Origin: a virus
Length of the DNA stretch: 64,000 nucleotides
UHGV virus genome: UHGV-1579991
Direction: 5' to 3' (one strand)
Shown here: positions 27,950 to 62,970 of the stretch, piece by piece
Numbering within the stretch: the stretch's first letter is position 1
How the letters are laid out: each line of letters begins with the position of its first letter
Made by a program: the position numbers and the translations under genes
The notes under the pieces: model-generated
Told to the model about the DNA's origin: nothing
Database searches by the model: none
The model's input: the letters and a program-made list of their open reading frames with translations, nothing else

Positions 27950-27956
27950 TTAATTG

Positions 27957-28540: not shown

Positions 28541-29038
28541 TCATTCGATGTTACCAGATAATATCCGAATGGCATCCAATGCATTTTCTCGTATCAAGCC
28601 AAACTTACCTATAACTTGAACAAAATGTTTGTCATTTTCAAATGTTGAGTCATCAAGAATGACATATTGTTTGATGTTATGTTTCTCAACAAGCGCAGGC
28701 ACTGCAGCAAATCTGTCATGAAAGCCCTCAGCATAAATTGATGGCAACAAATAGCCTGGCATATTGCGCTTAAGCCACATTATCTTGCAGTCATCAAGAA
28801 TAGCCCAACTGCTTATTAAGCATATTGCACCAACATCTGACATTTGACAAATGTATCTCAACCAGCCAACACAACGTTCATCGAACAATTGGCCAAACTC
28901 ATCTTTTGACTGCACATCCATGTTTGCACGATGCTTTGACATGTGCAACATATTGAGATTATCTTGGCTATTCAGAACACCATCAATGTCCAAGAATATC
29001 ACTTTGTCAGGCCAAATCACTTTGTTTGTTGTGTTCAT
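28541..29038 (-). CDS. HAD-superfamily hydrolase-like protein
   Basis: 165 aa; HAD motif I FLDIDGVLNS near the N-terminus and a C-terminal ILDDS acidic motif. Confidence 0.5.
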   Translation of the reverse strand: MNTTNKVIWPDKVIFLDIDGVLNSQDNLNMLHMSKHRANMDVQSKDEFGQLFDERCVGWLRYICQMSDVGAICLISSWAILDDCKIMWLKRNMPGYLLPSIYAEGFHDRFAAVPALVEKHNIKQYVILDDSTFENDKHFVQVIGKFGLIRENALDAIRILSGNIE

Positions 29039-42400: not shown

Positions 42401-43439
42401 GCATTTTGCGTACAACTACATTATTGTTGTCATCATAGCAATACACATTAACATCATCGCCAATATCTGCAAGTTCACGTATTGTCATTGTTTGTCTGCC
42501 ATCAGCAAGCATAACTTTAGTGCTGCCAACAATGCATGGATTTGTTGAGCGCTCTTCATACATTTTACCGTATGCTTTCGAGTTCGACTCTTCCATAATG
42601 CGGTCCCAAAAGAACACGCCGGGTTCTGCAGATGCCCATACATTGTCAACAATTTTGTCAAATAATGCTTTTGCATCTGATGTCTTATGCAGCTCTTGGC
42701 CATCAGAGCCACGCCAAATATGTTCAAACTGCTGTTCTGCAAGCACTGCACGCATAAATGCATCAGTAAGCTTGATGGAAATGTTTGCACCTGTGATTTT
42801 TGTCAAGTCTTTTTTTGCGTCAATGAACTTATCTGCATCAGGATGCTCAATTGACAATGACAACATCAATGCGCCACGCCTGCCATTTTGTGCAACTTCT
42901 TTTGTCGATGTTGAAAAGCGTTCCATAAATGACACGACACCAGACGTCGTAATAGCACTGTTATGTACTTCTACGCCTTCTGGGCGAATATGCGACAAAT
43001 CATGGCCAACACCACCACGACGTTTCATCAACTGAACTTGCTCTTCATCTGTTTTGAAGATGCCGCCATATGAATCTGCATCATTGCCTATTACATAGCA
43101 ATTTGACATTGATGTGTAACCGCCAAGACCGATACCAGCCATTGGAGAACCACCAAGTACAAATCGCTTAAATGGCTCAAGCAAATATGCAAGTCGCTCT
43201 TTTGACAATACACGTTTGCCTGTCTGTTCTTCAAATTGTGATTCTATACGGTCAAATTCATTGACCCAGCGCTCATGCATATCAGACAATGAGTGTTCAT
43301 ACAAATTGTCTTTGTCATGATGCAAGTATTTTGACATGCATATGTCAGCAGCCATTGAGTCGCCCGTAAATTCATGCGTCAGTGTAGTGTGCACTTCAGC
43401 ATATTCAGGCGACCCAATTTGAATGGGACGTTTTGTCAT
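39453..43439 (-). CDS. nrdJ: ribonucleotide reductase, class II (NrdJ)-like, intein-containing precursor
   Basis: Track ORF 39453..43499; likely start at ATG 43439 (MTKRPIQIG). Exteins reconstitute the RNR active-site motif NP-CGEQPL...AYASC; C-terminal Cys-rich zinc-ribbon-like tail. Class assignment is tentative. Confidence 0.7.
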   Translation of the reverse strand: MTKRPIQIGSPEYAEVHTTLTHEFTGDSMAADICMSKYLHHDKDNLYEHSLSDMHERWVNEFDRIESQFEEQTGKRVLSKERLAYLLEPFKRFVLGGSPMAGIGLGGYTSMSNCYVIGNDADSYGGIFKTDEEQVQLMKRRGGVGHDLSHIRPEGVEVHNSAITTSGVVSFMERFSTSTKEVAQNGRRGALMLSLSIEHPDADKFIDAKKDLTKITGANISIKLTDAFMRAVLAEQQFEHIWRGSDGQELHKTSDAKALFDKIVDNVWASAEPGVFFWDRIMEESNSKAYGKMYEERSTNPCIVGSTKVMLADGRQTMTIRELADIGDDVNVYCYDDNNNVVVRKMRHPRKTGSNVQIYKVTLDSGDVIRCTGNHKFKLTDGTYKEARQLQHGDSLAIIARQQCSFDEVLSYQTNSKSAPYYAVLNNGVYKFEHRLIAEYCHAEQFDATHTVVHHIDGNSLNNDPNNLQVLSKKEHDALHALERRGTNNPIYKIKANAERFAQYSAKMSASTSGERNGRYDIDTTVQSIVDYVTQCTAKVGRGLSRKELEYYMRYAPGNNTVAWSGYRYNKLVETFGSIDAFLSHCATRANVKYPDLVGIDSRCIATAIKVRNMGYDTKFVDKQVYVKRICEHCGSEFWAHWFYREVAYCSAECGHAAQQAKWSKEQVLVYTAAKQKLGKRPNYEEFANECKSNNVDAAIHASYRKFKQFADYYNHRVHTVELDGVEDVYNGTVDDYHNFFVGSFDAVNDTNDRHMQVFVNNRQCGEQPLAAYASCILSHRNLTAYVLNPWTADASFDFEAFYKDTYDCAVIMDDLVQLEIEAVQRIIAKVESDKESFDIKKTELDLWHKVYDKLTNTRRYGMGFLALGDAMAMLGLRYGSQESIDFAVTMQQWLVKATYEASIDLAEIRGSFAIFDYDTDVQSKFIQRMLSELIDDEHITTYQQFGRRNINTTTIAPTGTTALMTQTTSGIEPVFMPLHKRRRKPTAVDNEADINFIDETTGDKFIEYAVVHYPLMQWICKRVQLGDDKFTLVKDTGIEWSEAEMSRIKAWLSNASQAVIDELLVQSPYYKATTEDVDWIGKVKLQGALQKYIDSSISVTVNIPNSATKELVREIYLTAWKSGCKGCTIYRDGSRAGVLVKDDKQSKDKSHVLQSGHRSKRKPVLPAAVYCVSVYKRKWCILVGCDDGRPYEIFAFELDKDEFDKLQGIEQTTITKTDKKHYKLGDNLSFLQHYDNISERLGSDEQQTITRLYSTMLRNGIDLGEIVDQTAKSFASVGTFCKAIGRALKLHIQDGSKMYAKCPECGGDMVKFDGCVRCTNCGHSACN
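41148..42536 (-). mobile_element. intein (Hint domain plus HNH homing-endonuclease domain) inside the RNR gene
   Basis: In-frame 463-aa insertion from Cys at 42536 (CIVGSTKVMLADG) to ...VFVNNRQ at 41148, followed by the +1 Cys of CGEQPL. Contains HNH motif HHIDGNSLNNDPNNLQVLSKKEHDALH and intein block-F-like VYNGTVDDYHNFFVG. Confidence 0.75.
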
Positions 43440-43504
43440 TGTAACAGTGCATTTAAGTGTTTTAACAGTTTTATGTATAAATTGTACAACAATGGGCAAA
43501 ATTT

Positions 43505-44348: not shown

Positions 44349-44540
44349 TGTAGTAGAGGTTAAAATATATTGATATATAATAATTATACTACAAAGTTGC
44401 CAGATTTGCACCAGAATGTATAACAAGTTTGCATAAAAAAGTTTTTACATAAAATGGCAAACAAAAAACAAGCAGACTGCAATTGCAGCCTGCTTGCGCC
44501 AAAACAGAAAAAGATGATAACTTAACCCAAAAACCTAACT

Positions 44541-46094: not shown

Positions 46095-46700
46095 TTAGCC
46101 TGCAAACTCATTGATTTTTAGGTCATTTGTCGTAACTGCAAAGCAATCAATGTGCAGCCATGTGACGTCTTTTTCTATACGACAACGATGCGGCAATTCA
46201 TCTGCATGTTCTTTAATGAGCTTTCGCATTTCTGCAGCAGTCATATCTGCAGACTGACAATCAATTGCTGCACCATTACAATGAGCACTCAAATAAAGCT
46301 TGTTTGCAAGTGTCTTGTCTTTTGGGATTTGACAGATATTGCATCGTAAGCCCCGTTGACTCATTGTGCCACCTTTAGCCCAATTATTGACACACAACGG
46401 AACTTTCAGCACAAACTTGCGTAATGCAAGCAGCAAGTCAAGCAGTTCTCTGTCAAGAAACTGCCAAGAATTATCGCCAAACTTGTCATAGCAATGTTTG
46501 CATACAAGTTCTTTTATGCTGAAGTACTGCTTAAGCTCTGCAATAACAGAGTCTCTTGAAGCACTTGCAATATCTGCAATGTTAGTTATGCTGTTGTTGC
46601 TGTTCATGTTGTCTGTCAAGTTCTTTGCATTTGCACTCATTTCGTTCACCCATGACTTTTGTAATGCCTGCAGTTGCAAACATGCCTGCGACTGCACCAA
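46095..46700 (-). CDS. putative endolysin, peptidase M15-like (zinc D-Ala-D-Ala carboxypeptidase / L-Ala-D-Glu peptidase fold)
   Basis: 201 aa; SxHxxGxAxD motif (LSAHCNGAAIDC) and downstream His (WLHID); true start may be an internal Met. Overlaps the holin-like ORF. Confidence 0.6.
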   Translation of the reverse strand: MVQSQACLQLQALQKSWVNEMSANAKNLTDNMNSNNSITNIADIASASRDSVIAELKQYFSIKELVCKHCYDKFGDNSWQFLDRELLDLLLALRKFVLKVPLCVNNWAKGGTMSQRGLRCNICQIPKDKTLANKLYLSAHCNGAAIDCQSADMTAAEMRKLIKEHADELPHRCRIEKDVTWLHIDCFAVTTNDLKINEFAG

Positions 46701-46890
46701 TTATGCCTGCAACTGCGCCAAGCTGTTCAGTTGTTTTACCAGTTGCTACGACTTCCCATATGATAGCAAAACAAACAACGAGCAATATAAAGATGCCTAT
46801 AAAAGTCACAGCTACAACAAAAAATGATTTGACTGACACACCTGTGTCATTCGTCACTAAGTTGCGCATTGTAAATTTGTTGTTATTCAT
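46582..46890 (-). CDS. holin-like small membrane protein
   Basis: 102 aa; two hydrophobic helices (FFVVAVTFIGIFILLVVCFAIIW, AVAGIIGAVAGMFATAGI) and a charged C-terminus; 3' end overlaps the endolysin start. Confidence 0.45.
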   Translation of the reverse strand: MNNNKFTMRNLVTNDTGVSVKSFFVVAVTFIGIFILLVVCFAIIWEVVATGKTTEQLGAVAGIIGAVAGMFATAGITKVMGERNECKCKELDRQHEQQQQHN

Positions 46891-47050: not shown

Positions 47051-48706
47051 TTATGCAAGCAATGTTTGCAGCATGTAGCAGCCTTTTGCATATGCGACAA
47101 TTGCTTTTGCAGGGTTGTTCTTGATGTATGCAGGCAACTTGAGCCAAATCAATGCCACAAGCACTTTCTGTCGCAGCGTCAAATCAAGTTCATCAATGTT
47201 GTAGCCAATGACTTTTGCTCTGACGTCGCCATCAACATAATCGAATTGCTGATATGCTGACTGATTGAATACATCATAGCCAGACAAACCATATGCAAAC
47301 TTTGCAATGTCATAATCGATGTCACCTGTCATCTTAACGTCACCAAAGTAGCCTCTGGGGTCAATGAACATGCATTTTGATGAATCTGCACTGAACATTG
47401 TATTTGACGTATTCGGGTCACCATGAATGAATGACCAATTTTCGCATGCATAGTCAATTGAATCTTCTTGTGACAAGAAGAATCTTAACTTGCTCATCAG
47501 TTCATCGAATGGCATCAATGCAATACCATTGAATGATTCGATGCCTGCTACAAGTGACTTGACTTCAGCATATCTTGCAATAGTAGTCTCAATGTACTCT
47601 TTGCGCATTGCGTCAATCATTTGCTGTCTGCTAACTGGCCAAATCTCGTCATTGTCAAGATTGCTTGCATGCAATTCATTGATTGACTGCTTGAATGTCG
47701 TCATGCAGCCACGTGCAATTGTAGCATATCTACGCTCAATATCAACTTTGTTGAGGAACTGATGTACAGTCACTCCGTTAATTTTCGACATTTTGATGAA
47801 GTCTTCACCAGTTTCAAATATCGATGGAATGACTGTCGATTCTGCATTCATAGCATGACGATACCATTCTTGTTCTTTCTGAATGAGTGCCAAACCACGA
47901 GCATTTGTAGCAGATTTCGTAACAATATCGCCATCAATGCTAATGCTATTGAAATACCGTACTTCATTATCACGTGCAGCCTTGACTGCTTCACTGACAA
48001 ATGCTCCGCGTTCGCCATATGAATGACAGCCAGCAATTTCATATCTGTCTACAAATGTAACGTTGGTCATTAAATCAGCAAAATCAGCATTGTTATCATT
48101 ATGCTGCATATCAATGACATTGTTATGAAACGCTGCAGGTACATAATATGCGCCAACAATGCCACTATGATATGTAGACTCATACAAATGGTCGAGCACA
48201 TATGCTTCTGCATCTGCATAAGACCCTACTTTGTAGAATGCATCAGTAGGAATGAGATGCAGTCTGCAATCAATGTCATTTGACGTGCAGCAAGTTATGC
48301 AGCCAGTTTTGAATTTGTCAAGTGGCAATTTAATGTCACCAAGCCATACGTCAGACCAGTGATAGAATACATTGCAGCCACCAATGTTGTTAGCAACATA
48401 CAGTGCTACATCTGCGCATGCTTTTGCTGAGCCATCAGCTTTGTCATGCACAATAGTTGACAATTTGATATCTGGTGCAAATGCTGCAGCATGTTCATGA
48501 ATCATTGCTGCATGAGTGTCATTTGCACATGCAACAATGACTTCATCAAACTGTCGAGCATAGGATGTCAAAATTTTTGCGAGCACGGTTTGTTTGCCCG
48601 CATTTACAAGAGTTTTAGGGATGTAATTGTTGCCAGTCATTGTTGACATGCGAGTGCCCAAACCACATGCAATGATTGCTAACACATTTGGATATTGATG
48701 AGACAT
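47051..48706 (-). CDS. bifunctional sugar-1-phosphate nucleotidyltransferase / kinase (APH or choline-kinase-like) fusion
   Basis: Start placed at internal Met (MSHQYPNVLAIIACGLGTRM). N-terminal NTP-transferase G-x-G-T-R motif; C-terminal kinase Brenner motif FIHGDPNTSN and FIDPRG. Confidence 0.6.
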   Translation of the reverse strand: MSHQYPNVLAIIACGLGTRMSTMTGNNYIPKTLVNAGKQTVLAKILTSYARQFDEVIVACANDTHAAMIHEHAAAFAPDIKLSTIVHDKADGSAKACADVALYVANNIGGCNVFYHWSDVWLGDIKLPLDKFKTGCITCCTSNDIDCRLHLIPTDAFYKVGSYADAEAYVLDHLYESTYHSGIVGAYYVPAAFHNNVIDMQHNDNNADFADLMTNVTFVDRYEIAGCHSYGERGAFVSEAVKAARDNEVRYFNSISIDGDIVTKSATNARGLALIQKEQEWYRHAMNAESTVIPSIFETGEDFIKMSKINGVTVHQFLNKVDIERRYATIARGCMTTFKQSINELHASNLDNDEIWPVSRQQMIDAMRKEYIETTIARYAEVKSLVAGIESFNGIALMPFDELMSKLRFFLSQEDSIDYACENWSFIHGDPNTSNTMFSADSSKCMFIDPRGYFGDVKMTGDIDYDIAKFAYGLSGYDVFNQSAYQQFDYVDGDVRAKVIGYNIDELDLTLRQKVLVALIWLKLPAYIKNNPAKAIVAYAKGCYMLQTLLA

Positions 48707-48749
48707 TGTGTAGTGTTGTTTATATGAGAATATTGTACAATATGCATTG

Positions 48750-49007
48750 CTATTTTGCAAGATGACAATGCTTACGCCATACTGCAATTTCAACATCTGT
48801 AGCAAAATCAAAGTGCAAGCCATGCAATTGTTTCATGCCATATTGACGTCTTGCAATATACTTATTGCCAACTCGCTCAACAACGGAACCAATTTCTACT
48901 ACATTTTTAGAATGTCGTGGCTCATGTAATGGCACTCTGAATATGTATCTGCCATCTAATGTTGACATTATGTCACCATTATCAATTATGCCTGTTTGCC
49001 TGCTCAT
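48750..49007 (-). CDS. hypothetical protein
   Basis: 85 aa ORF. Confidence 0.35.
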   Translation of the reverse strand: MSRQTGIIDNGDIMSTLDGRYIFRVPLHEPRHSKNVVEIGSVVERVGNKYIARRQYGMKQLHGLHFDFATDVEIAVWRKHCHLAK

Positions 49008-49022
49008 TGTTAAAGCATCAAG

Positions 49023-49697
49023 TCATTTTTGAATGCCTACAAGTTCTGCAACAATTCTATTGTATGCTAATAAGTGCTTAGTTGCGTCATCAAGCAGCTT
49101 GTTAAATTCAAGATACTGCTGCAGCACTTTGTCATTATGCAATGACTGCTCAAGCGCAGCATAATCACCTGCAAACGGGCGATTCATTGACAGGCCAAAG
49201 TTCTTCGCACATTTAGCATAAAATGCATTGTACTCTGCAGCATCAATTGGTGTCGCGTCATGCGCATTAAGCGCACTTTTACTGAGCAATGGAATGCTGA
49301 GTTTTCTGCAACGAGTAAACTCATCTTTGTCGACATACAGCACAGAACAACGAACCACATGGTCTTCTGCATTCATGCCACCTGTCAACAAATCCATTTC
49401 CCAATCGAAGCAAATGTTGTAGATGTACAGCATCACAGTTCGATGCTTGTTATCAACAAACTTCCAATATCGAGACTTTTTGCAGATAGCTTTGATATGC
49501 TGCAAGTCATGCATAAACTTATCATGCGATATCGCATCAAAGCGAGGCAATGATTTGTTGTCAATGAATGCGTTTGCTGCATCTGCACAACGTTTGAATT
49601 CTGCTTGATGCATATTCAGCTCTTCTATGCGCTTTGCTACAAGCGCTTCATATTCTGCTTTTGCAAGAGCAAGTCTTGCTTCATACAAACTTTGCAT
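49023..49697 (-). CDS. hypothetical protein
   Basis: 224 aa ORF. Confidence 0.45.
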   Translation of the reverse strand: MQSLYEARLALAKAEYEALVAKRIEELNMHQAEFKRCADAANAFIDNKSLPRFDAISHDKFMHDLQHIKAICKKSRYWKFVDNKHRTVMLYIYNICFDWEMDLLTGGMNAEDHVVRCSVLYVDKDEFTRCRKLSIPLLSKSALNAHDATPIDAAEYNAFYAKCAKNFGLSMNRPFAGDYAALEQSLHNDKVLQQYLEFNKLLDDATKHLLAYNRIVAELVGIQK

Positions 49698-49722
49698 ATT
49701 TGTGTATGTTTATGAGTTTCTG

Positions 49723-50178
49723 TTAAAATTTGCCATCTGCTACTTGAAAGCATCGATAGCCAAGCTCTCGCCATTTAGCGACCATGGAATCGCGGTCTTC
49801 AAGCACAAATGCAATTTGTTGCAGTTCGTCTTCAGACAATGCTTCTACAAGCAATTCAGGTTTGACAAGCGTATCATGACGTTTATCACCATCTTTTCGC
49901 ATAAGAATTTGCGGATTAACGATTCTGTAATCTGTATGCTGTGCAAGCCAAACTTCTGTCATTTGTCTGCAGCTTTCACGACGGCCTGTGCAGAATATGA
50001 TTCTATAGCCAACTTGCTGCAAATCGCAAAGCAAGTCAAGCACAGTCATAATAGGCTTGTCTTCATAACAGTGTGCATAAAATGCATCCCAATCTTTGTT
50101 TTGCTGTTGAAGATATTTTAGACGGTCGCCAACTTTTGAAATTGTTCCGTCAATGTCGCATATGATGATATTTGCCAT
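49723..50178 (-). CDS. HAD-superfamily phosphatase
   Basis: 151 aa; HAD motif I IICDIDGTIS at the N-terminus, motif II-like FCTGRRE, motif III/IV-like RKDGDKRHD. Confidence 0.55.
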   Translation of the reverse strand: MANIIICDIDGTISKVGDRLKYLQQQNKDWDAFYAHCYEDKPIMTVLDLLCDLQQVGYRIIFCTGRRESCRQMTEVWLAQHTDYRIVNPQILMRKDGDKRHDTLVKPELLVEALSEDELQQIAFVLEDRDSMVAKWRELGYRCFQVADGKF

Positions 50179-50196
50179 GATGTGTATGCTTATGAA

Positions 50197-50222
50197 AGGA
50201 AGAGCTCAATTGAGCTCTTCCT
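50197..50222. terminator. 26-bp perfect palindrome; putative terminator
   Basis: aggaagagctcaattgagctcttcct; between the start of 49723..50178 and the stop of 50253..51125; shares the AGCTCAATTGAGCT core with the palindrome at 54522-54549. Confidence 0.5.
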
Positions 50223-50252
50223 GATAGTCAACTTGATAAACCTCTACGAAAA

Positions 50253-51125
50253 TCAAGCTTGACTACTTTTGTTGATTACGAGATACTTGTATCGTTCTTT
50301 GATTGTGATGTTCTTTGATTTTGCCGCCTCGATTTCTTTGCGTTCCTTGGAGGAATAGTTGAACTTAATGTAGTCGGAGAACAATTCGGGCTTATCTGCT
50401 ACTTCATTGTTCTTGACTTCTTTTACAAGAGTTTGCTGAAACTCATTGATTGTAGTGAAACCAAGGAATGACTGGAACTTGTTAAGCGGAAACAGCTTAT
50501 CTGTGTTGTCCTCGAATGTCGGGAATTCGTCGGAATACGTAATTTCGATTTGGTCTACGAAATATCTAAGTTTTTCCCAAGGTTCCTTGCCAATGAGGAG
50601 AATGTTCTGATGGTCAAGTTTTTCCTCGAACATTTCCAGGAGACATTCGTATGATTTTACGAGACGAACTCCAGGATATGTAATTGATGCAATTGAACGA
50701 GGTTTGTGAGTCGTCTTGACTTCTTTATTGTATGTTTCCTCGTCGATGCAATAGATGTATCGCTTGACCTTGTCGTATTCTTTCGGAAGATAGTTGTTGT
50801 CAAGGAATTGCTTGTCAACTACAATGAAACTGAAAGGATAGAGTTCATTGAATCGTTGACGAAGCTGTTCTGTTGCAAGGAAGAAATGCGAGCCATCTTT
50901 TGCTGCAAATTCCATATTTGAATTGCATCCTGCATATGCAATGTATCTGTTTCGCTTCCATTTGAGGAATCGACTTACCAGGTTCTTTTCGAAGATGTCC
51001 TTGTATTTGAAGTAGGTGTCCCAGTACTCCTTAACAATTCCATCTTGCATTTTTCTTGACAATTTTGAATTGTCTACCGGCCTATCAGTAAAAACTGATG
51101 GTTTGTTTGCGTTGTATAATCCCAT
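50253..51125 (-). CDS. hypothetical protein (compositionally distinct)
   Basis: 290 aa ORF; codon usage looks richer in G/C-ending codons than its neighbours (judged by eye); preceded by the promoter cassette and the leader AACCTCTACTACA-ATG. Confidence 0.5.
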   Translation of the reverse strand: MGLYNANKPSVFTDRPVDNSKLSRKMQDGIVKEYWDTYFKYKDIFEKNLVSRFLKWKRNRYIAYAGCNSNMEFAAKDGSHFFLATEQLRQRFNELYPFSFIVVDKQFLDNNYLPKEYDKVKRYIYCIDEETYNKEVKTTHKPRSIASITYPGVRLVKSYECLLEMFEEKLDHQNILLIGKEPWEKLRYFVDQIEITYSDEFPTFEDNTDKLFPLNKFQSFLGFTTINEFQQTLVKEVKNNEVADKPELFSDYIKFNYSSKERKEIEAAKSKNITIKERYKYLVINKSSQA

Positions 51126-51126
51126 T

Positions 51127-51200
51127 GTAGTAGAGGTTTGTTAATTTATTATTTATAGATATATAATACTACGACAATGCAAATTTTGCACTGTCGTAGC
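51127..51200 (-). promoter_or_regulatory. putative late-type promoter cassette (TATAAATA box on the minus strand), duplicate of 35161-35230
   Basis: Minus-strand read GTGCAAAATTTGCATTGTCGTAGTATTATATATCTATAAATAATAAATTAACAAACCTCTACTACA-ATG; shares the core attatttatagatatataatactac with 35183-35208. Confidence 0.5.
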
Positions 51201-51220
51201 ATAAAAGTTTACACATTTTT

Positions 51221-51559
51221 TTACAAATGCGAGAACAACTTATTCGTAACTCGTTCAATTGCAAATTCAACACCATATTGCAACAACTGTTCAGTGCTAA
51301 ATGCTTTTGCTGCATGCGCAGGCGCAATATGCTTTGTCTGTGCATACAAAGTCCAAGTATCAGTTGGCCTGTCATAAGTAACTGTCAGTCTGTATGTTTG
51401 CAACACAAACTCTTGACTAAAGTATTCTCTTCGCCAAAACTCTGGTTCTGCAATATGCAAATCAAGCCAAGCAAACTCAAACAGAATTTGTTTAAGTTGA
51501 CGTTGATGCTTACGTTCAGCACGATATGTGCCACTAAACAGATACTTGATGATGTTCAT
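51221..51559 (-). CDS. hypothetical protein
   Basis: 112 aa ORF. Confidence 0.4.
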   Translation of the reverse strand: MNIIKYLFSGTYRAERKHQRQLKQILFEFAWLDLHIAEPEFWRREYFSQEFVLQTYRLTVTYDRPTDTWTLYAQTKHIAPAHAAKAFSTEQLLQYGVEFAIERVTNKLFSHL

Positions 51560-51578
51560 TTATTTAAGTTTTGTGTTA

Positions 51579-52565
51579 TTATACTACAGCAGACAATTGT
51601 TGCAATGTTGACTGCATAACGTCATCAGTTACAAATAATTCGTTTTCAGTGAACACATAAAATTTTAAGCCATGTTGTTTTGCATATTGCACTGCTGCAG
51701 TAGATTTTTTACGTACTGCATCACAAAATGCATATGCACATGGCTTAATTTCTATTAGCAATCCATATGTAGGCAAATAGAAATCTACAATGTATTTATG
51801 ATGCCCATTGTATGGCACTGCAACAGTTTCATATTCATATTGAATGCCAAGACGTTCTAATGTCAATACAAAATGAGTTTCATAACTACTGCGTGTATGC
51901 AATTGCGTTGGCATTGCAATAGAATGACATTTTACACACTGCTGAACAAGTACTAATGCGCGTTTGCCCTTACCACAGTTTTGCATTTTGCCATTTTGCA
52001 TTGCTCGTGCAACACCTGCAGCAACGTGCATAGCAAATGATGGGTCTTCTTTATATTTTCGTCGTAACCCTGCAGATACACGAGACTTAAAGTCTGGGTC
52101 TTCTGCATAGCGTCTGTTCAAACCAGCAGTTACTCGTTGGCTAAATGTCGGGTCATTCACTACAGCAACCATTGCTTTTCGCGTGCCAATTGACACATTT
52201 TTACATCGAGTTTCATCTCGCCATACTTTAGACATAGATGCTGTCCAGCGTTTAACATATTCAGGGTCATCAAACGCATGTTTTGCGCGACAGCATTTAC
52301 AAACATTATTAAAGTAGCCATATCTAATGCCTATGTATGCTATAGCAGCCCCACAATATTTGCAATGTTTTGCTGCGTCATCATACAATAGATATTTGTC
52401 ATAGTAGTCTTGTTCATGCATATTAACAGATTGTAATGCTCTGCGTATTGTGCATGATGTACACCATTTGTTAAGCTCTGGTACATAATACTCATAACGT
52501 TGCTGCCCCTTTGGTGTTATTCGTGCAAGTCTTTTATATTCCGGATGATATGTAGGATTTTTCAT
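51579..52565 (-). CDS. homing-endonuclease-like paralog (divergent N-terminus)
   Basis: 328 aa; C-terminal nuclease-like domain (YIVDFYLPTYGLLIEIKP) as in the other paralogs; N-terminal Cys-rich region with repeated DPxFKxRVxAGLxRxY motifs. Confidence 0.45.
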   Translation of the reverse strand: MKNPTYHPEYKRLARITPKGQQRYEYYVPELNKWCTSCTIRRALQSVNMHEQDYYDKYLLYDDAAKHCKYCGAAIAYIGIRYGYFNNVCKCCRAKHAFDDPEYVKRWTASMSKVWRDETRCKNVSIGTRKAMVAVVNDPTFSQRVTAGLNRRYAEDPDFKSRVSAGLRRKYKEDPSFAMHVAAGVARAMQNGKMQNCGKGKRALVLVQQCVKCHSIAMPTQLHTRSSYETHFVLTLERLGIQYEYETVAVPYNGHHKYIVDFYLPTYGLLIEIKPCAYAFCDAVRKKSTAAVQYAKQHGLKFYVFTENELFVTDDVMQSTLQQLSAVV

Positions 52566-52659
52566 AGAATATGTATATGCACGTTATGCACCAGGATGCA
52601 CAAACAAAAACTCACAGTAACTATGTATAGTTACTGTGAGTTATCACAACATGCTTTAA

Positions 52660-53382
52660 TTAGTTATCATGCACAGCAGCTATATAACGGCCTTGCGAAT
52701 CCAAATGAATCGCAGTTTGCATTGTAATTTCTGGCTGCGCTTTGTTGTGTTGTTGCTCTGCATCATATTCACGTCGCAACCCACCATTCGGATGACATAG
52801 GTAAAACCTATCAAAATCTGTACCCAACTGTTCAGCGACAGACAGCATAATATTGTCGCCTACAAGCTGAGATGCTAGCAGAGAATTTGTTGGGATTCGT
52901 GGATTGCGTGAGTCCTCGTCAATTGCTGGCAATGATACAAGCAAGTCTGCCCAAGCATTCATATCAGTGACCTTGCCACCGGCAAAGTTGATGCCAATGA
53001 TTTGACAATTCGGTGCAAGCAATTCACGATGTTCACGAAGATATGTCATTGCAGTTGCAAGTTCAGATGTGTTGCCAGTTTTGCTGAATGCTACAATAAC
53101 ATCGTTGTTTCGAATCATGCCAAAGTCACCATGCATTGCATGCACTGCATCAAAGAATGATGCGTTCAATGACAAGCAATAACATGTTGCAGCAAGTTTT
53201 TCACAGCAATGCACATTTTTGCCGATGCCAGTGAACAACACTTTGCCATCAGACTTCAATGCATTTGCAATGATATCTGCTGCAATGCCAAGAACATCAT
53301 ATTGCGCATCTGAAATGTTGTTGTGCCATGCTACAAGCGATTCAACTGATGCAGCAATGCCTTTGTGTACAAGTGTTTTCAT
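52660..53382 (-). CDS. SIS-domain sugar-phosphate isomerase (KpsF/GutQ arabinose-5-phosphate isomerase-like)
   Basis: 240 aa; SIS signatures VLFTGIGKN, HAMHGDFGMI and FSKTGNTSEL. Confidence 0.65.
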   Translation of the reverse strand: MKTLVHKGIAASVESLVAWHNNISDAQYDVLGIAADIIANALKSDGKVLFTGIGKNVHCCEKLAATCYCLSLNASFFDAVHAMHGDFGMIRNNDVIVAFSKTGNTSELATAMTYLREHRELLAPNCQIIGINFAGGKVTDMNAWADLLVSLPAIDEDSRNPRIPTNSLLASQLVGDNIMLSVAEQLGTDFDRFYLCHPNGGLRREYDAEQQHNKAQPEITMQTAIHLDSQGRYIAAVHDN

Positions 53383-53400
53383 TTTGTGATGTTTGAAGGT

Positions 53401-54081
53401 TCAAAAAAACTTAAGTTTTGATAGCATTTCAGTGTCTTGTTCTGTGTTGATGCCAAGCTCTTGCATGACATCAAGCAATGCAGACCATAATTGCTCATAT
53501 GATTTGCCGCTGTTCATAACAACAGCGTCAACAAACAACTCGTCGATATATTGTTCACTTGAATGATTGATGCTTTGCTTGACATCGTCATTGATAATTT
53601 TAATGAGTTTGAAGCCTCTTGAACGCAATGCGGTCGCTTCATTTGGATATCGACAATCGCCAACACAAATAAGAGCTTCATTATGACAATTGTCAAGTCG
53701 ATACAGCAAACTGTTTACAAAGAAGTCTTCACCATACAGTTTCTTGAGCGCATCTGAAACATCAAGATGCACATTGCGAATCGATGAACCTGCAAACTCT
53801 ACAAAGTGTTTCTGTTTGAATGCATTGTTATGCAAGTCTTGCAAATTGTAGCCCAGTGTACTTGCAATAAATGCTTTCAGTGGCTTTGCAAAGCACTCAT
53901 ATGCAAGATTGCAGCCACATGACCAGTATGGATTCGCTTCAATTTGCTGTAAAGTTGATGTGTAAATGCCATCAACTACAGTGAACTTGCATTTAGTCAT
54001 GACTCGAATCATCGCCCAAGCCAAATCTTTGCCTACGCCTGCATGACCAACAAGCGCAATTTTTGTTATGTCATCATTCAT
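53401..54081 (-). CDS. deoxynucleoside monophosphate kinase (T4 gp1-like)
   Basis: 226 aa; P-loop-like LVGHAGVGKD and VGDCRYPNE motif resembling the RFxNE element of phage dNMP kinases. Confidence 0.5.
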   Translation of the reverse strand: MNDDITKIALVGHAGVGKDLAWAMIRVMTKCKFTVVDGIYTSTLQQIEANPYWSCGCNLAYECFAKPLKAFIASTLGYNLQDLHNNAFKQKHFVEFAGSSIRNVHLDVSDALKKLYGEDFFVNSLLYRLDNCHNEALICVGDCRYPNEATALRSRGFKLIKIINDDVKQSINHSSEQYIDELFVDAVVMNSGKSYEQLWSALLDVMQELGINTEQDTEMLSKLKFF

Positions 54082-57354: not shown

Positions 57355-58425
57355 TCATTGTTGTTTATGCCAGCCATATGATGCCTGACCAGCATCATAC
57401 ACTTCTACAAAACCATGGTCGTACATAAAATCTTCATTACGAGTGCCCTTGCCACCATTAGTGCCAAGAATACGGTCTGCACCATGCATAAGTAGCATGT
57501 TATTTGTGACATGTTGCTTTGTCAGCATATTGAACCAGTGTTTGCTATATGACAAACCAAGACCATCAAAGCCCAGCTTTGTGTACACACCACCGTCAAA
57601 CTTGCTTAAATCACAATATGATAACACAGATTCAGGGTCATATGTCTTGATAAAGTGCTTAAAGATTCGTTCAGCACCACCAACAACTTTGGTTGCTGCA
57701 CAAAGACGTAGCAATTCATATTGATAGCGCTTATTGTATCGTGGACGACCAAATGTCATAAGTTGATGAATGACATAACCACCAAGCAACTCAAGTGGAT
57801 GACCTTCAATCAACGCAAGATTGATAAAATTGCCTGAGCACTTGCCTTGCAAATGATGTTCAATCAAAAATTGATTTGCAGTATACTTGTCAATTTCAAC
57901 AACTTTAAGCTTGCGAGCATATACAATCTTTGATTTGTCTACGATTTGATGCTTGATGTGATTGATAACTTTCTTGGCGTCATCCCAATCCCACACATGA
58001 ATACAATGAAAGCCTGCAGCTTTTGCAATGTCTGTTTTCTTTGCATGAACATCACAAGGCAAATGTGCATCTTTTGCATCATGCATAAACAAGTGCTCAA
58101 ATGAATGCGTACTGTTATGCGAAAATGCAGGATTGATGTTAATGACAATATTGTCATGTCGAAAATCGAAGACTTCATCACCAATGACAAAGTTGCGCTC
58201 AAAATCTATACCGACATGTTTGAGCAACACTTGATGCCACACGTCTTTATAGGCTGATTCAAGCTTGCTTAGCTCATCACAGTTTGCAATGTTTTTGTAA
58301 CGTTGAATAGCAGCATCAAAGTCAAGATTGACTTCAGCGTAGTCTGCATTTTTATCATAGTGAAATTTTGAGCTCATGCGTATAATTTTGTGTATATAAT
58401 TATTGTACAACATGCAAATGCACAT
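57355..58425 (-). CDS. homing-endonuclease-like paralog (nuclease-like domain N-terminal)
   Basis: 356 aa; N-terminal IVININPAFSHN...GFHCIHVWDWDD nuclease-like domain and C-terminal FVEVYDAGQ tail homologous to the family VYDCGH motif. Confidence 0.5.
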   Translation of the reverse strand: MCICMLYNNYIHKIIRMSSKFHYDKNADYAEVNLDFDAAIQRYKNIANCDELSKLESAYKDVWHQVLLKHVGIDFERNFVIGDEVFDFRHDNIVININPAFSHNSTHSFEHLFMHDAKDAHLPCDVHAKKTDIAKAAGFHCIHVWDWDDAKKVINHIKHQIVDKSKIVYARKLKVVEIDKYTANQFLIEHHLQGKCSGNFINLALIEGHPLELLGGYVIHQLMTFGRPRYNKRYQYELLRLCAATKVVGGAERIFKHFIKTYDPESVLSYCDLSKFDGGVYTKLGFDGLGLSYSKHWFNMLTKQHVTNNMLLMHGADRILGTNGGKGTRNEDFMYDHGFVEVYDAGQASYGWHKQQ

Positions 58426-58468: not shown

Positions 58469-59530
58469 TTATTTTGTATTGCTACGCGTCATTGTTAAAT
58501 GACCGCAATCATACACATCAACTTCTGTTTTGCCAAGCATACATGTATGACAATTTATTTTGAAATCTGCTGCAGTGTAATCAGGATAGTTTAGCGGAGA
58601 TTCTTTTGACAAATCAATTTCAATTGTGTCAGTAGTTTTAAGTTGTTCAGTGCCTGCAATGATATCTGCAATAAGATTGATAACTTCTTCTTGTGAATCC
58701 CAATCAAACACAGTTATGCAACGATAGCCTGCATCAAGTGCAAGTTTTGTTTTGTTGTAATGGTATTGAGCACCAATAACATTGTTGTCTTTTGCTCGAC
58801 CAGTTAAATATGCAAAACTAACAGTGCAGTTGTGCGTAACTGTTGGACAAATTTCTATAAGTAACTTTGCAGGCTCATACTGCAAATCATATGTTTGATT
58901 ATTGATGTTAAACTCGTACTGTGTATCAATTGCCAACTGTCGTAATAACGCATCATGCCACATCATATTACATTTAGAAATTGTTTTGGATGACAATCTG
59001 CATTGCGGCAATTGACATGGCCAATCTACGCCGTACATTTGTTGTGTTGTTTGACGCATTTTGTTAACATCACCAAAATGATTGCCATATCGATGCTCTT
59101 TGGTTTTAAGCGACTGCTCAATATTGACATTGCCTACACAACCATAACGTTCAAGTTTTGTTGCAGCAGTTTTGCTAACATCACCATGCCCATTGCCAAA
59201 TTTGGCGACTTTAGTTGCAAGTATTTTATGACTTGGGCCAAATGCATTGCCATACAATTCTTGTTTAGTCGCAAGCATTTTGTCGATATTACAACCAGCG
59301 CCATAAGTGTTATGCATAGTTTGCATACGTTGTCGAATAAATTTTGGCACAGATAAAGGACTTTCTACACCATATTTGCGTAAGCAACTGATTTTGCATG
59401 CGTACTTTTGCTTGATGACAGAATGTGCATTTCGACGTCCTATGTAAGTGTTTTCTGATGTAGCAGCAAGCTCTGCATCTCTAAGAACTTCAAGTGCAGC
59501 AATTCGTGCTTCAATTTCTTCAGATGTCAT
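58469..59530 (-). CDS. homing-endonuclease-like paralog
   Basis: 353 aa; coiled-coil N-terminus (EIEARIAALEVLRD), YG-x-x-x-G-D repeats, LIEICPTVTHN...GYRCITVFDWD nuclease-like domain, VYDCGH tail. Confidence 0.55.
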   Translation of the reverse strand: MTSEEIEARIAALEVLRDAELAATSENTYIGRRNAHSVIKQKYACKISCLRKYGVESPLSVPKFIRQRMQTMHNTYGAGCNIDKMLATKQELYGNAFGPSHKILATKVAKFGNGHGDVSKTAATKLERYGCVGNVNIEQSLKTKEHRYGNHFGDVNKMRQTTQQMYGVDWPCQLPQCRLSSKTISKCNMMWHDALLRQLAIDTQYEFNINNQTYDLQYEPAKLLIEICPTVTHNCTVSFAYLTGRAKDNNVIGAQYHYNKTKLALDAGYRCITVFDWDSQEEVINLIADIIAGTEQLKTTDTIEIDLSKESPLNYPDYTAADFKINCHTCMLGKTEVDVYDCGHLTMTRSNTK

Positions 59531-61680: not shown

Positions 61681-62970
61681 TCATTTTTCAATCTTTTTGA
61701 GCAATGCATGACCGCAATCATAGACTTCGACGAAGCCTGAAGCAATCAATGAGTCAACATCTATAGAAGACGTTCGTATAATATGTTCGTGTGTCTTGAT
61801 ATTGTATAGATGACACTGAACCCATGTTTTGACGACTTCATAATTTGGATACAATCGAGGGTCTTCTTTTGACAAATCAAGTTCTATGACATCATCAGTT
61901 TTGAGCTGCTCAGTTTTGTTTATGACATCTCTAATGTGCAGCAACATATCATATCTACAATCCCAGTCAAATATTGTTATACATCGATAGCCATTGCGTG
62001 CTGCAACATCTGTTTTGAATTTGTGAGCATACGCAGGTTTGGCGTCATTATCAACAGAATGCCCAGTTATGTAACCAAAGCCCTTTGTTGCATTGTGTGT
62101 AACAGTTGGATTGATTTCAATTACAACAGCATCTTTTCGCAAATCATATAACAAGTTCTCAATAGGATGCTCAGTAACAAAATCAAGATTGCAAGAATGT
62201 TTCAAATCCCATTGCCACGACATATTGATGTTTGATGTCAACCTTGCAGATGCTTGCGGCAATTGCAATGCATGTTCTACACCATAGCGTTCACGTAATG
62301 TTGCATGAGCCTTTTGCATATTTTGCATTGCTGGACCCCAATGCTTAAATTTTGTTGCATTTATCTTCGCAATTTTGTCTGGCAGCTTATTTGTACTATC
62401 TACACCATATTTAATAAGACAGCTGATGCGAATATTGTATTGTCGTTTTATTCGAGAATGTGATGTAGCACATCTACTAAATCGTTCAAATGGTGTTGAT
62501 GCAATCAATGCATCTCGTTCTGACTCAAGAGCTTTGACATGTTCAAGCACTTCTGCTGGCACATTATCATAGTCAATCACATATTGCTGACGTGGTTGCG
62601 TTACATGAGTTTTGCCATATGTCTTAAGCTTATTGATTTGCATGCTATACTTTCTGCGTATATGTGGATGTCTTGATGCATCAGATTGCGCAATTTCATG
62701 CTCTCGTTGCTCTTCAAGTTTAGCTATTTGCTCAACAATAGCTGGTTCAATGTCTGGTTTGTCTGATATGACTATACTTTTAAGCTCATCAAGACGTTTG
62801 TTTAGATATTTGACACGTCTTGTGTATGTTATCTTTGCAACTTGATGGTTTGTATGATGCTTACCTACTTGCTGTTCTGGTTGATTCAGCGTGTCATCAA
62901 GGCGTTGCTTAGCGAGCTCAAATTCATTATCAAGCCATGCTTTGTGTGTGTCAAATTCGTCTTGTGTCAT
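61681..62970 (-). CDS. homing-endonuclease-like paralog
   Basis: 429 aa; coiled-coil region, YG repeats, VVIEINPTVTHN...GYRCITIFDWD nuclease-like domain, FVEVYDCGHA tail. Confidence 0.55.
   Translation of the reverse strand: MTQDEFDTHKAWLDNEFELAKQRLDDTLNQPEQQVGKHHTNHQVAKITYTRRVKYLNKRLDELKSIVISDKPDIEPAIVEQIAKLEEQREHEIAQSDASRHPHIRRKYSMQINKLKTYGKTHVTQPRQQYVIDYDNVPAEVLEHVKALESERDALIASTPFERFSRCATSHSRIKRQYNIRISCLIKYGVDSTNKLPDKIAKINATKFKHWGPAMQNMQKAHATLRERYGVEHALQLPQASARLTSNINMSWQWDLKHSCNLDFVTEHPIENLLYDLRKDAVVIEINPTVTHNATKGFGYITGHSVDNDAKPAYAHKFKTDVAARNGYRCITIFDWDCRYDMLLHIRDVINKTEQLKTDDVIELDLSKEDPRLYPNYEVVKTWVQCHLYNIKTHEHIIRTSSIDVDSLIASGFVEVYDCGHALLKKIEK

Follow-up and report, generated by a model that had tools for sequence, protein, structure and literature searches.

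Which acceptor is served by a sugar-nucleotide cassette that a phage encodes beside a deoxynucleoside monophosphate (dNMP) kinase? The question is raised by a 64 000 nt stretch of DNA (the window), amounting to ~36 % of the 175 kb genome of an uncultured gut phage, in which an initial annotation had placed an NDP-sugar cassette that might feed a DNA sugar modification. The best reading of the data presented here is that the cassette serves to make an NDP-pentose, probably UDP-arabinose, for the glycosylation of 5-hydroxymethylcytosine in phage DNA; a probability of roughly 0.6 is assigned to its being the sugar-donor half of a two-locus cytosine hypermodification system. The data comprise domain identities, homologies, gene linkage and active-site signatures, all taken from sequence, and the enzymatic activities named below are predicted from them. 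All of the ORFs that the initial annotation had described were recovered on the minus strand, with the same coordinates and domains. Its T4-like context held in part: a Gp23 match was found (5e-11), but the likeness is only distant. The phage falls outside the Straboviridae, and its core proteins are 35–41 % identical to those of its nearest cultured relative, Chryseobacterium phage MA9V-1 (OR050627.1).

The fusion gene (47051–48706, minus strand) encodes an AfhE-like bifunctional protein of 551 aa, from a start codon also chosen by metagenome gene calls. An NTP_transferase domain (PF00483, 4.5e-5, over the Pfam cutoff) occupies residues 11–121, a weak APH match covers residues 423–471, and the protein matches phrog_4098 at 1e-76; the N-terminal domain is thus a predicted sugar-1-phosphate nucleotidylyltransferase and the C-terminal domain a predicted APH/choline-kinase-like sugar kinase. 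The residues G15-x-G17-x-R19, K31, H428-G-D430-x4-N435 and I448-D-P-R-G452 were invariant when five distant homologues were compared. Full-length tblastn matches were obtained in 372 phage records, among them JS98 orf42 (annotated as RB69 orf052c-like), and the family of RB69 gp52:53, JS98 orf42 and Thanatos TH1_060 is homologous to the fusion over its full length (~29 % identity, E 2e-38). The HY126 member of this family, AfhE, is reported to act as a D-arabinose-5-phosphate 1-kinase and UDP-arabinose pyrophosphorylase (PMC13326640). Because the identity to characterized AfhE-family proteins is only ~29 %, the sugar and nucleotide specificity of the fusion is not secured.

The isomerase gene (52660–53382, minus strand) encodes a 240 aa SIS-domain protein of the KdsD/GutQ type that lacks the CBS pair. 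It matches Pfam SIS (PF01380, 5e-8), phrog_5670 ('arabinose 5-phosphate isomerase', 5e-26) and the NCBIfam KpsF/GutQ/KdsD models (~1e-19), and is 38 % identical to the MA9V-1 KpsF/GutQ protein (E 1e-38). The catalytic residues of E. coli KdsD (K59, H88, E111, E152 and H193) are all retained (5/5). Taken together, the fusion and the isomerase (API) are the predicted counterpart of the phage UDP-arabinose module (AfhE/API) that was characterized in 2025–26 in RB69, DLP3 and HY126. The grouping is not a matter of chance, since in 56 of the 80 fusion-carrying IMG/VR loci the gene directly upstream of the fusion codes for an API, and the identical cassette was found again on independent assemblies. 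Beside the isomerase gene lies that for a gp1-like dNMP kinase of 226 aa (53401–54081, minus strand; phrog_139, 5.5e-27), for which the Pfam DNMK match (2e-5) falls slightly under the cutoff; in the related locus L034 its homologue adjoins the DHFR-fold and fusion genes. By analogy with the cognate dNMP kinases whose role was demonstrated in PMC13326640, this enzyme would be expected to phosphorylate modified dCMP.

The third activity, removal of the 5-phosphate, had been ascribed to a small HAD phosphatase. Such a protein is indeed present (49723–50178, minus strand; 151 aa), but it is of the PNKP-phosphatase type (PF25109 HAD_PNKP, 1e-31; phrog_415/505) and was seen only in contigs of the same species. 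It was considered as an orthologue of AfhF and rejected, being only 23 % identical (E 0.017) to JS98 orf41, an EcbF/BcbF-type protein. It is possibly a sugar-bisphosphate phosphatase, and is regarded as a candidate for that role. The order of reactions given in the initial annotation, dephosphorylation and then 1-phosphorylation, has to be reversed if HY126 is followed, where 1-phosphorylation comes first and 5-dephosphorylation second.

These features bring in a different view, in which the genes are merely adjacent and form no single pathway: the HAD protein would be a nucleic-acid 3′-phosphatase of RNA or DNA repair, the DHFR-fold gene and the ORFs of 224, 112 and 85 codons would be fillers, and only API and the fusion would cooperate. 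The best matches of the HAD protein, to polynucleotide-kinase phosphatase families, agree with this, as do another RNA-repair-type HAD at 28541–29038 of the window, a better-conserved HAD candidate adjoining the hydroxymethylase gene, and the lack of the HAD, 224 aa and 85 aa genes in four relatives (L004, L007, L034 and MA9V-1). Against it, the HAD gene sits between two conserved partners, the DHFR-fold and fusion genes, on the same strand and with short gaps. Moreover, the PNKP phosphatase domain and the GmhB-type sugar-bisphosphate phosphatases both belong to HAD subfamily IIIA. This view, which merits serious weight while falling short of an even chance, touches the accessory genes only and is compatible with the sugar-donor interpretation.

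It was of interest to determine whether a base-modifying enzyme accompanies the cassette. No ThyA homologue or recognizable transferase was found in the window. The rest of the genome, where the initial annotation had suggested that a hydroxymethylase be sought, yielded a T4 gp42-type ThyA homologue at a second locus 63–64 kb from the cassette. This locus was located on two near-identical IMG/VR genomes (contigs 3300045988_149023 and _152288), in which the fusion is 98 and 96 % identical, the ThyA-like gene 99 and 98 % identical, and the spacing consistent. All nine active-site positions compared with T4 gp42 are the same (D143, C146, T147, R166, S167, N168, D169, G173 and D177), and the protein is a predicted cytosine-specific hydroxymethylase of the gp42 type; a separate canonical ThyA is also encoded in the genome (4e-76). 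A TMK-like kinase is found at the second locus as well. The genes of MA9V-1 are arranged similarly: DHFR-fold (172), API (175) and fusion (178, annotated 'GlmU') occur in the same order, and the neighbours of a hydroxymethylase-type ThyA (088) are a TMK-like kinase (087), a helicase and a KdsC-like HAD protein (084). The hydroxymethylase-type ThyA, TMK-like kinase and a HAD-containing protein also occur together in locus L024. MA9V-1 differs in the long C-terminal extension of its ThyA homologue (447 aa), and BLAST did not detect in it a homologue of the 391 aa transferase-like protein described below.

The initial annotation had cited arabinosylated hydroxymethylcytosine as a known base; the base in question, from the 2018 RB69 report, was later reassigned as arabinosyl-5-hydroxycytosine (PMC13326640, PMC13390438). 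The system that makes it is known from Straboviridae (RB69 gp45–55, DLP3 gp76–83 and the HY126 Afh genes; PMC13326640 and Mahler et al. 2025 cited there). Might the present phage carry the same system, with ether-linked arabinosyl-5-hydroxycytosine, no methylene bridge, and a ThyA homologue acting as a flavin-dependent 5hodCMP synthase? The sugar modules are homologous: shared are the fusion with its domain order, the adjoining SIS isomerase, a clustered small HAD phosphatase and, taking the genome as a whole, a cytosine-specific (N177D) ThyA homologue, TMK-like and gp1-like kinases and GT-B transferases. By the residue criteria of PMC13326640, however, the ThyA homologue retains D169, the T4 hydroxymethylase signature, and lacks the D169N mark of 5-hydroxycytosine synthases, whereas all examined 5-hydroxycytosine-type sequences (those of JS98, L038 and L071 included) carry E143 and N169; D169 and D177 are kept in 118 of the 120 closest homologues of the MA9V-1 enzyme. 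The D169N rule is empirical, drawn from the RB69 and DLP3 enzymes and nine further tested homologues. Other differences are that the transferases here resemble T4 β-GT or other GT-B proteins, with no homologue found of the JS98 orf38-type arabinosyltransferase or RB69 gp46:47, that the HAD protein is PNKP-type rather than EcbF/BcbF-type, that the DHFR-fold protein is a lineage-specific companion, and that a single cluster of ~8 kb is replaced by two distant loci. A 5-hydroxycytosine system in this phage is accordingly judged quite improbable.

The Shewanella phage Thanatos (TH1_060, TH1_062 and TH1_063) presents a similar case. Its 561 aa nucleotidyltransferase/phosphotransferase fusion, TH1_060, has the same architecture, its inactivation nearly abolishes phage propagation, a ThyA homologue and a glycosyltransferase-fold protein are encoded close by, and LC-MS revealed a pentose attached to cytosine (PMC12838424). 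Unlike the present phage, Thanatos is a Straboviridae relative with clustered genes, and its ThyA homologue is of the D169N type, which yielded 5hodC when assayed in PMC13326640.

As for transferases, the second locus encodes a T4 β-GT-like protein of 391 aa (phrog_7922, the T4 β-GT family, 1.4e-7; alignment to T4 BGT, E 6e-7), in which segments around T4 D100 and R269/E272 align. It also encodes a 412 aa protein with weak GT-B matches and a 364 aa protein in which a KdsC-like HAD is fused to a GT-B-like segment; these glycosyltransferase matches are weak overall (1e-4 to 1e-7). API and fusion have a T4-BGT-like gene within 10 kb in three loci (L042, L057 and L065) and a homologue of the 391 aa protein within the same distance in L058, and T4-BGT-like genes adjoin hydroxymethylase-type ThyA genes in five more (L145, L147, L156, L165 and L166). 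Homologues of the 412 aa protein occur 1.5–2 kb from such ThyA genes (L135–L138 and L141), and those of the KdsC-like HAD directly follow the fusion in L071 and L098. The glucosyl-hydroxymethylcytosine system of T4 consists of the gp42 dCMP hydroxymethylase, the gp1 dNMP kinase and α- and β-glucosyltransferases, and the present phage shares with it the full gp42 signature, a gp1-like kinase and a β-GT-family transferase. It differs in encoding a pentose-activating module of its own, whereas T4 draws its UDP-glucose from the host and lacks genes for sugar nucleotides; overall identities are low (22–27 %), and no gp56/MazG-type dCTPase has been seen so far in the ~105 kb examined.

It is conceivable, though unlikely, that the NDP-sugar is destined for an acceptor other than DNA, in host LPS or capsule remodelling or virion protein glycosylation, with hydroxymethylcytosine carrying no sugar, or else glucose that the β-GT-like enzyme takes from host UDP-glucose. 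The distance of 63–64 kb between the cassette and the hydroxymethylase/transferase locus counts in favour of this and against the DNA-directed interpretation, and in T4 the closest transferase family, phrog_7922, works with UDP-glucose; the β-GT-like enzyme could simply draw on the host supply. Approximately half of the viral loci with API and fusion, including those of jumbo phages and giant-virus MAGs, had no ThyA-like or glycosyltransferase gene detected within 10 kb; the module need not always serve DNA. Arabinose-5-phosphate also stands at the start of Kdo synthesis, as its first intermediate. The bacterial Kdo pathway (KdsD, KdsA, KdsC and KdsB) resembles the cassette in opening with the same isomerization and in including both a nucleotidyltransferase and a HAD phosphatase. 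The window showed no KdsA- or KdsB-type gene, however; the HAD protein there is not KdsC-type, and the nucleotidyltransferase is kinase-fused and matches sugar-1-phosphate uridylyl- and thymidylyltransferase families, not KdsB. Nor was a membrane glycosyltransferase or flippase-like gene seen. The flanking dNMP kinase, the β-GT-like genes within 10 kb of API and fusion in four other lineages, and the fact that fusion-family members with a function or phenotype in the cited literature all come from phages with pentose-modified cytosine likewise argue for DNA.

In the DNA-directed pathway, the kinase domain at the C terminus of the fusion would phosphorylate C1, the window HAD and/or the KdsC-like domain of the 364 aa protein would remove the 5-phosphate, and the N-terminal nucleotidyltransferase would yield an NDP-pentose, probably UDP-arabinofuranose. 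At the second locus, the gp42-type homologue would form 5-hydroxymethyl-dCMP, which the gp1-like and TMK-like kinases would take towards the triphosphate for replication. The β-GT-like protein, together with one or two additional GT-B-like proteins, would then place the sugar on hydroxymethylcytosine in DNA, an inferred pairing of transferase and donor, and the modified DNA would be shielded from host nucleases. These homologies bear out the core of the initial annotation at the level of sequence: a UDP-arabinose-type module and a T4-type hydroxymethylcytosine enzyme in one genome may make a sugar-modified base. If so, the base would be one not yet confirmed in any phage, and the system a variation on the known phage arabinose-DNA system in a very distant lineage.

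The remaining ORFs of the cassette also lie on the minus strand. Two had been proposed as places to look for a glycosyltransferase. The first (49023–49697) encodes a 224 aa ORFan with long terminal helices, for which AF2 gave no reliable model (pLDDT 51) and which has only three homologues (89–92 % identity), no match in Pfam, PHROG or NCBIfam and no similarity to the JS98 ThyA homologue; nothing supports that assignment. The second (50253–51125; 290 aa) has instead the DHFR/RibD-C fold, and accompanies the fusion gene throughout the lineage. Pfam and PHROG searches gave no family for the 112 aa ORF (51221–51559; 90–92 % identical in the sister genomes L032 and L033) or for the 85 aa ORF (48750–49007), which is confined to the same species, being 98–99 % identical in L032 and L033 and missing from the other loci. 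A mobile insertion (51560–52689) lies within the cassette and outside the pathway. It consists of a 328 aa TnsA/endonuclease-I-like homing endonuclease (51579–52565; Pfam Phage_endo_I and TnsA-like N, 2e-4; phrog_22215, 1e-19) and a strong hairpin (52609–52642), and ~35 bp stand in place of this 1130 bp segment in L032 and L033. The canonical dihydrofolate reductase that had been noted elsewhere in the window was confirmed at 4342–4845 (minus strand; PF00186, 1.2e-50), and forms part of the context outside the cassette.

All of the open reading frames proposed in the initial annotation of the cassette (47051-54081) were recovered on the minus strand with the same boundaries. The fusion gene (47051-48706, minus strand) encodes a 551-aa protein in which, as had been claimed, a nucleotidyltransferase is joined to a kinase: Pfam detected NTP_transferase at the N-terminus (PF00483, 4.5e-5, above the Pfam cutoff) and, weakly, APH at the C-terminus, and PHROG 4098 was matched at 1e-76. 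The nucleotidyltransferase domain matches PF00483/GlmU/MurU-type families. Full-length homologs were found by tblastn in 372 phage records (approximately 29% identity, E 2e-38), with a query coverage of 98-100% in the listed records and of at least 80% in 327 of the 372. The carriers include JS98 and phages of Acinetobacter, Klebsiella and Vibrio, and the annotation of JS98 orf42 notes its similarity to RB69 orf052c. Invariant in the fusion and four distant homologs were G-x-G-x-R and a lysine in the nucleotidyltransferase, and H-G-D-x4-N and I-D-P-R-G in the APH-type kinase. The protein thus resembles RB69 gp52:53 and JS98 orf42 over its full length, with an N-terminal nucleotidylyltransferase and a C-terminal APH-like kinase in a single chain; a sequence search of the PDB with it returned no match.

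The isomerase gene (API, 52660-53382, minus strand) had been described as KpsF/GutQ-like, and its SIS-domain product indeed matches phrog_5670, 'arabinose-5-phosphate isomerase' (5e-26), and the NCBIfam KpsF/GutQ/KdsD family (about 1e-19). Mapped on the E. coli KdsD sequence, it retains all of K59, H88, E111, E152 and H193, and only the CBS pair is missing. The API and fusion genes lie 4 kb apart in the window, with inserted and accessory genes between them. Because API is immediately upstream of the fusion in 56 of 80 IMG/VR loci that carry the latter, the two are considered, on gene order, to be a conserved functional unit.

RB69 gp52:53, DLP3 gp82 and HY126 AfhE are bifunctional enzymes (PMC13326640, NAR 2026). 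In the pathway to which they belong, the SIS isomerase converts ribulose-5-phosphate to arabinose-5-phosphate, the C-terminal kinase turns this into arabinose-1,5-bisphosphate, the HAD phosphatase AfhF takes off the 5-phosphate, and UDP-arabinose is the product of the N-terminal domain (PMC13326640). Inactivation of TH1_060 of phage Thanatos, which has the same architecture as the fusion, nearly abolishes propagation (PMC12838424). This arabinose pathway was worked out in 2025-26, only for Straboviridae making 5-hydroxycytosine (5hoC). By sequence, the module in the window is assigned to the known AfhE/API kind, and we infer, from homology to the HY126, RB69 and DLP3 proteins only, that its product would be UDP-D-arabinofuranose, formed from arabinose-5-phosphate via arabinose-1,5-bisphosphate. 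A Kdo pathway was rejected, since no KdsA- or KdsB-type Pfam match was obtained among the scanned window ORFs of at least 110 aa (nearly all of that size) and the kinase is fused to a nucleotidyltransferase.

The occurrence of the module extends far beyond the Straboviridae, to which its characterisation had been confined. Homologs of the fusion (24-30% identity), mostly full length and in a few cases the kinase half only, were observed in giant-virus MAGs (L070, L077, L082, L083, L092, L093, L099, L101, L104, L108 and L111) and in jumbo phages (L035, L039, L042 and L058, contigs of 310-342 kb). An isomerase gene is often adjacent to them, and no ThyA-like gene was found within 10 kb.

The proposed dNMP kinase beside the cassette (53401-54081, minus strand) is gp1-like, as in T4-type systems (phrog_139, 5.5e-27). 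The proposed small HAD phosphatase (49723-50178, minus strand) is present as well, and is of the PNKP type (PF25109, 1e-31), not of the AfhF type. It has 23% identity (E 0.017) to JS98 orf41, an EcbF/BcbF-type protein, and TIGR01689, which is matched by JS98 orf41, is not matched by the window protein; it is therefore not considered an ortholog of AfhF (RB69 gp51/JS98 orf41 type). It is, moreover, restricted to the species of the window phage. The better-conserved candidate for the 5-phosphatase is a KdsC-like HAD domain in a 364-aa protein encoded at a second locus of the same genome (L229); beside it, the PNKP-type protein is a possible participant. A second HAD in the window (28541-29038) is of the 'Swiss Army Knife RNA repair' type (PF18143, 2e-14), so that the phage possesses HAD phosphatases unrelated to sugar metabolism.

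Two unassigned ORFs of the cassette had been suggested as the first places to look for a glycosyltransferase, and neither bore this out. Similar in size to JS98 orf38 and orf39, the 224-aa (49023-49697) and 290-aa (50253-51125) products were rejected as transferase or ThyA homologs when neither BLAST nor hhalign detected any similarity. The former is an ORFan, with homologs known only at 89-92% identity, and its structure model has a pLDDT of 51; nothing, therefore, favours a transferase. The latter has a DHFR fold. It gave no match in Pfam, PHROG or NCBIfam, it does not carry the sequence signature of an active DHFR, and its NADPH motifs, judged by eye from the alignment, are degenerate. The DHFR noted elsewhere in the window is genuine (4342-4845, 1e-50). 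Despite this canonical enzyme, a DHFR/RibD-fold protein is a constant neighbour of the fusion in this lineage (window, 50253-51125; relative L004, 10001-10918; L034, at about 8496; MA9V-1, 142417-143700).

A variable segment of 1,130 bp (51560-52689) is situated between the isomerase gene and ORF112. It encodes a 328-aa TnsA/endonuclease-I-like nuclease (ORF 51579-52565), includes a hairpin (52609-52642) whose stem is 15 bp long, and takes in the codons for the C-terminus of the isomerase. In two sister genomes approximately 35 bp stands in its place, and the segment is therefore interpreted, from this comparison, as a homing-endonuclease insertion, with the presence/absence polymorphism typical of such elements. 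Directly downstream of the fusion, a 201-aa ORF (46095-46700) has LAS/M15 peptidase-like motifs by eye (SAHCNGAAID ... WLHID) and no Pfam match; a 102-aa ORF overlapping it (46582-46890) seems, by eye, to be hydrophobic, and in L004 a homolog of this ORF likewise follows the fusion gene. The two may be lysis genes.

Among 50,697 phage records, megablast found no close match to the DNA of this region. A Logan contig matches the window at 100% identity, and the same phage was found on ENA contigs reaching 181 kb and as two IMG/VR genomes, one of 175.6 kb (IMGVR_UViG_3300045988_149023, 175,564 bp) and one of 174.6 kb; given these assemblies, the window covers approximately 36% of the genome. The nearest cultured relative is the Chryseobacterium phage MA9V-1 (OR050627.1), with core-protein identities of 35-41% (terminase 41%, capsid 37%, topoisomerase II 38-39%). 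Since these values are low and the Gp23 Pfam match of the window phage is just 5e-11, the phage is placed, on sequence, as only distantly T4-like and outside the Straboviridae. The gene set of MA9V-1 comprises a KdsC-like HAD (084), a TMK-like kinase (087), a ThyA homolog with D169 and D177 (088), a DHFR-fold protein (172), an isomerase (175) and a fusion annotated 'GlmU' (178); its published description reports no DNA-modification analysis. Seven tRNA genes (Gly, Thr, Glu, Ser, Leu, Pro and Gln) are clustered on the minus strand of the window at 26412-28027, where ARAGORN also called a permuted tmRNA (26412-26854) with an odd 31-residue tag, which may be a false positive.

A Pfam scan of nearly all window ORFs of at least 110 aa found no thymidylate-synthase homolog and no glycosyltransferase; in a control, the JS98 5hodCMP synthase was detected by Pfam (3.6e-13) and the JS98 transferase was missed. 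The 10-kb extensions on both sides of the window contain large structural genes only, and no ThyA-like gene. Besides a canonical ThyA (gene 040), MA9V-1 encodes the second homolog, gene 088, next to its TMK-like kinase, and the family returned by a query with gene 088 combines D169 with D177 in 118 of 120 members. An IMG/VR scan with an alignment of the MA9V-1 type did not reach the target, because the enzyme of the window phage lacks both peptide patterns that were used. An IMG/VR walk with a 563-aa protein encoded just beyond the window found nothing, and a scan anchored on the syntenic helicase missed the target genomes. Look-ups of P0014, P0017 and P0018 led to other phages or samples. The enzyme belongs to a shorter ThyA-like subfamily (P0023, P0024 and P0021) without the patterns of the first scan; of these, P0021 was traced only to a 1.1-kb contig, from a sample that is not one of those with the window phage. 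A scan with this subfamily placed P0023, the ThyA-like protein of L229, on both IMG/VR contigs bearing the cassette, at 99% and 98% identity, with 63-64 kb between its gene and the fusion gene in each assembly. The search of the rest of the genome for a dCMP or dUMP hydroxymethylase, suggested earlier, thus has a candidate outside the window, a ThyA of the hydroxymethylase type.

In the ThyA fold, N177D indicates a dCMP substrate and L143D/E a product other than methyl, and D169N is the mark of 5hodCMP synthases, as validated for nine diverse homologs with this change (PMC13326640). P0023 has D143, C146, T147, R166, S167, N168, D169, G173 and D177 (E. coli numbering); T4 gp42 and an Erwinia phage IT22 enzyme annotated as dCMP hydroxymethylase have the same residue at 9 of 9 positions. 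The residues were mapped with a MAFFT alignment and an E. coli ThyA sequence, and the T4, IT22, JS98 and Ackermannviridae controls behaved as expected: E143 and N169 are present in the positive controls JS98 orf39, L038 and L071, and N177 is kept in the Ackermannviridae enzymes. P0023 therefore carries the combination expected of a dCMP hydroxymethylase (catalytic Cys, N177D, L143D/E and D169) and not the D169N and N177D of a 5hodCMP synthase. Given the identity to gp42 with D169 retained, its predicted product is 5-hydroxymethyl-dCMP, not 5-hydroxy-dCMP.

An RB69-like 5hoC product is accordingly disfavoured by the active-site signature, and the transferase types speak against it as well. Approximately 28 Straboviridae-type loci have a D169N-type ThyA, an orf38-type transferase, an orf41-type HAD and a TMK-like kinase within 5 kb of the fusion; both the D169N ThyA and the orf38-type transferases of the arabinosyl-5hoC family are missing from the system of the window phage. 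BLAST and hhalign found no homolog of the RB69 gp46:47/JS98 orf38 transferases in the window, its extensions or L229; in 29 other loci such homologs were readily detected. Such a product is thus regarded as very improbable.

The gene order at L229 is TMK-like kinase, 391-aa protein, 412-aa protein, Mre11/Rad50-like nuclease, 364-aa protein, ThyA-like gene (10001-10882; 293 aa; Pfam Thymidylat_synt, 3.7e-24), helicase, canonical ThyA (4e-76) and exonuclease. The kinase has 33% identity to MA9V-1 gene 087. Putative glycosyltransferases at this locus, assigned at E-values of 1e-4 to 1e-7, include the 391-aa protein, which matches phrog_7922, the T4 beta-glucosyltransferase (BGT) family, at 1.4e-7. 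Its similarity to T4 BGT is significant but remote (about 240 aligned residues, E 6e-7, 22% identity), and takes in a TD-R-PF segment around T4 D100 and an R-V-x-E segment at R269/E272. The 412-aa protein has weak GT-B matches (1.5e-4) and no match in a sequence search of the PDB. The 364-aa protein is KdsC phosphatase-like at its N-terminus (PDB 2p9j, 1.6e-4), and the rest of it, at the C-terminus, is similar to the C-terminal portion of the GT-B enzyme glucan phosphorylase (0.006).

When compared with the T4 hmC family, the phage has a hydroxymethylase-type enzyme and a gp1-like dNMP kinase and, as a weak candidate for the transferase, the remotely matching 391-aa protein; T4 lacks a sugar supply of its own, whereas the window phage encodes one. 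A search of the window, L012, L016 and L229, together roughly 105 kb of the genome, turned up no gp56-type dCTPase; in L004 a weak MazG-like ORF adjoins the fusion gene. A GC-rich hairpin of 30 nt, GCAAGCAGACTGCAATTGCAGCCTGCTTGC, is present at a single place in the window (44464-44497) and, in near-identical form, at L227 (5055-5088), just downstream of a 118-aa ORF that follows the hydroxymethylase gene, and may be a shared terminator.

Linkage between these genes was apparent in other phages. In L042, L057 and L065, three contigs of large or jumbo phages, T4-BGT-like genes are found within 10 kb of API and the fusion, as is a homolog of the 391-aa protein in a fourth such contig, L058, and they stand beside hydroxymethylase-type ThyA genes in L145, L147, L156, L165 and L166. 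In five gut-phage contigs (L135-L138 and L141) the distance from a homolog of the 412-aa protein to such a ThyA gene is 1.5-2 kb, and homologs of the KdsC-like HAD domain directly follow the fusion gene, the position of AfhF, in L071 and L098. One 336-kb contig has all four kinds of gene (fusion, API, hydroxymethylase-type ThyA and BGT-like) within approximately 30 kb. The main rival reading is that the NDP-sugar goes to an acceptor other than DNA, hydroxymethylcytosine being left bare or glucosylated from host UDP-glucose. The distance between the cassette and L229 is in keeping with it, as are the many API and fusion loci, giant-virus MAGs included, that have no ThyA or glycosyltransferase nearby; it is nevertheless judged unlikely.

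Considered as a whole, with all functions assigned from sequence, the data favour, at a probability of roughly 60%, the cassette as the sugar-donor half of a split cytosine-hypermodification system, of which L229 would supply the base and the transferases. The isomerase would convert ribulose-5-phosphate to arabinose-5-phosphate, which would then be 1-phosphorylated, relieved of its 5-phosphate and nucleotidylated to an NDP-pentose, probably UDP-arabinofuranose; L229 would be the source of 5hmdCMP and of the DNA transferases, and the dNMP kinase of the cassette would bridge the sugar and base halves.

A broader proposal, tentative and somewhat doubtful, is that the window phage, MA9V-1-like phages and some jumbo phages place a phage-made pentose, probably arabinose, on 5hmC, a T4-type hydroxymethylase and beta-glucosyltransferase-like transferases having been recombined with the AfhE/API module and the DHFR-fold protein being a new component. 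The base would then be arabinosyl-5hmC, once wrongly assigned to RB69 and withdrawn there in favour of arabinosyl-5hoC (PMC13326640, PMC13390438). Since a literature search found no paper reporting a verified arabinosyl-5hmC in any phage, a pentosyl-hmC here would be a new nucleoside made from known parts. Phage DNA hypermodifications set sensitivity to restriction enzymes, CRISPR nucleases and type IV systems, and hamper sequencing and phage engineering. The sugar-activating module is now placed in a distant, apparently gut-associated lineage, where, as in several jumbo phages, it is combined with hydroxymethylase-type enzymes and T4 beta-glucosyltransferase-like transferases. This points to a modular mixing of 'base' and 'sugar' pathway halves, which predicts one specific new nucleoside, and the prediction is directly testable in MA9V-1, a related phage in culture with the same gene set.

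Mobile elements were also observed elsewhere in the window. Judged by the Pfam families that the called gene matches, the gene for the RNR large subunit (39453-43499) contains an intein that includes an HNH endonuclease, and approximately 1.2 kb within the intein region (41148-42309) differs from the sister IMG/VR genomes. Five further genes probably encode mobile endonucleases (57355-58425, 948-2222, 14438-15370, 58469-59530 and 61681-62970): one is a homing endonuclease gene (phrog_3339, 1e-41) and the other four match DUF7487 weakly. Some of the five flank the major capsid gene. The genome thus seems to be heavily colonised by selfish elements.
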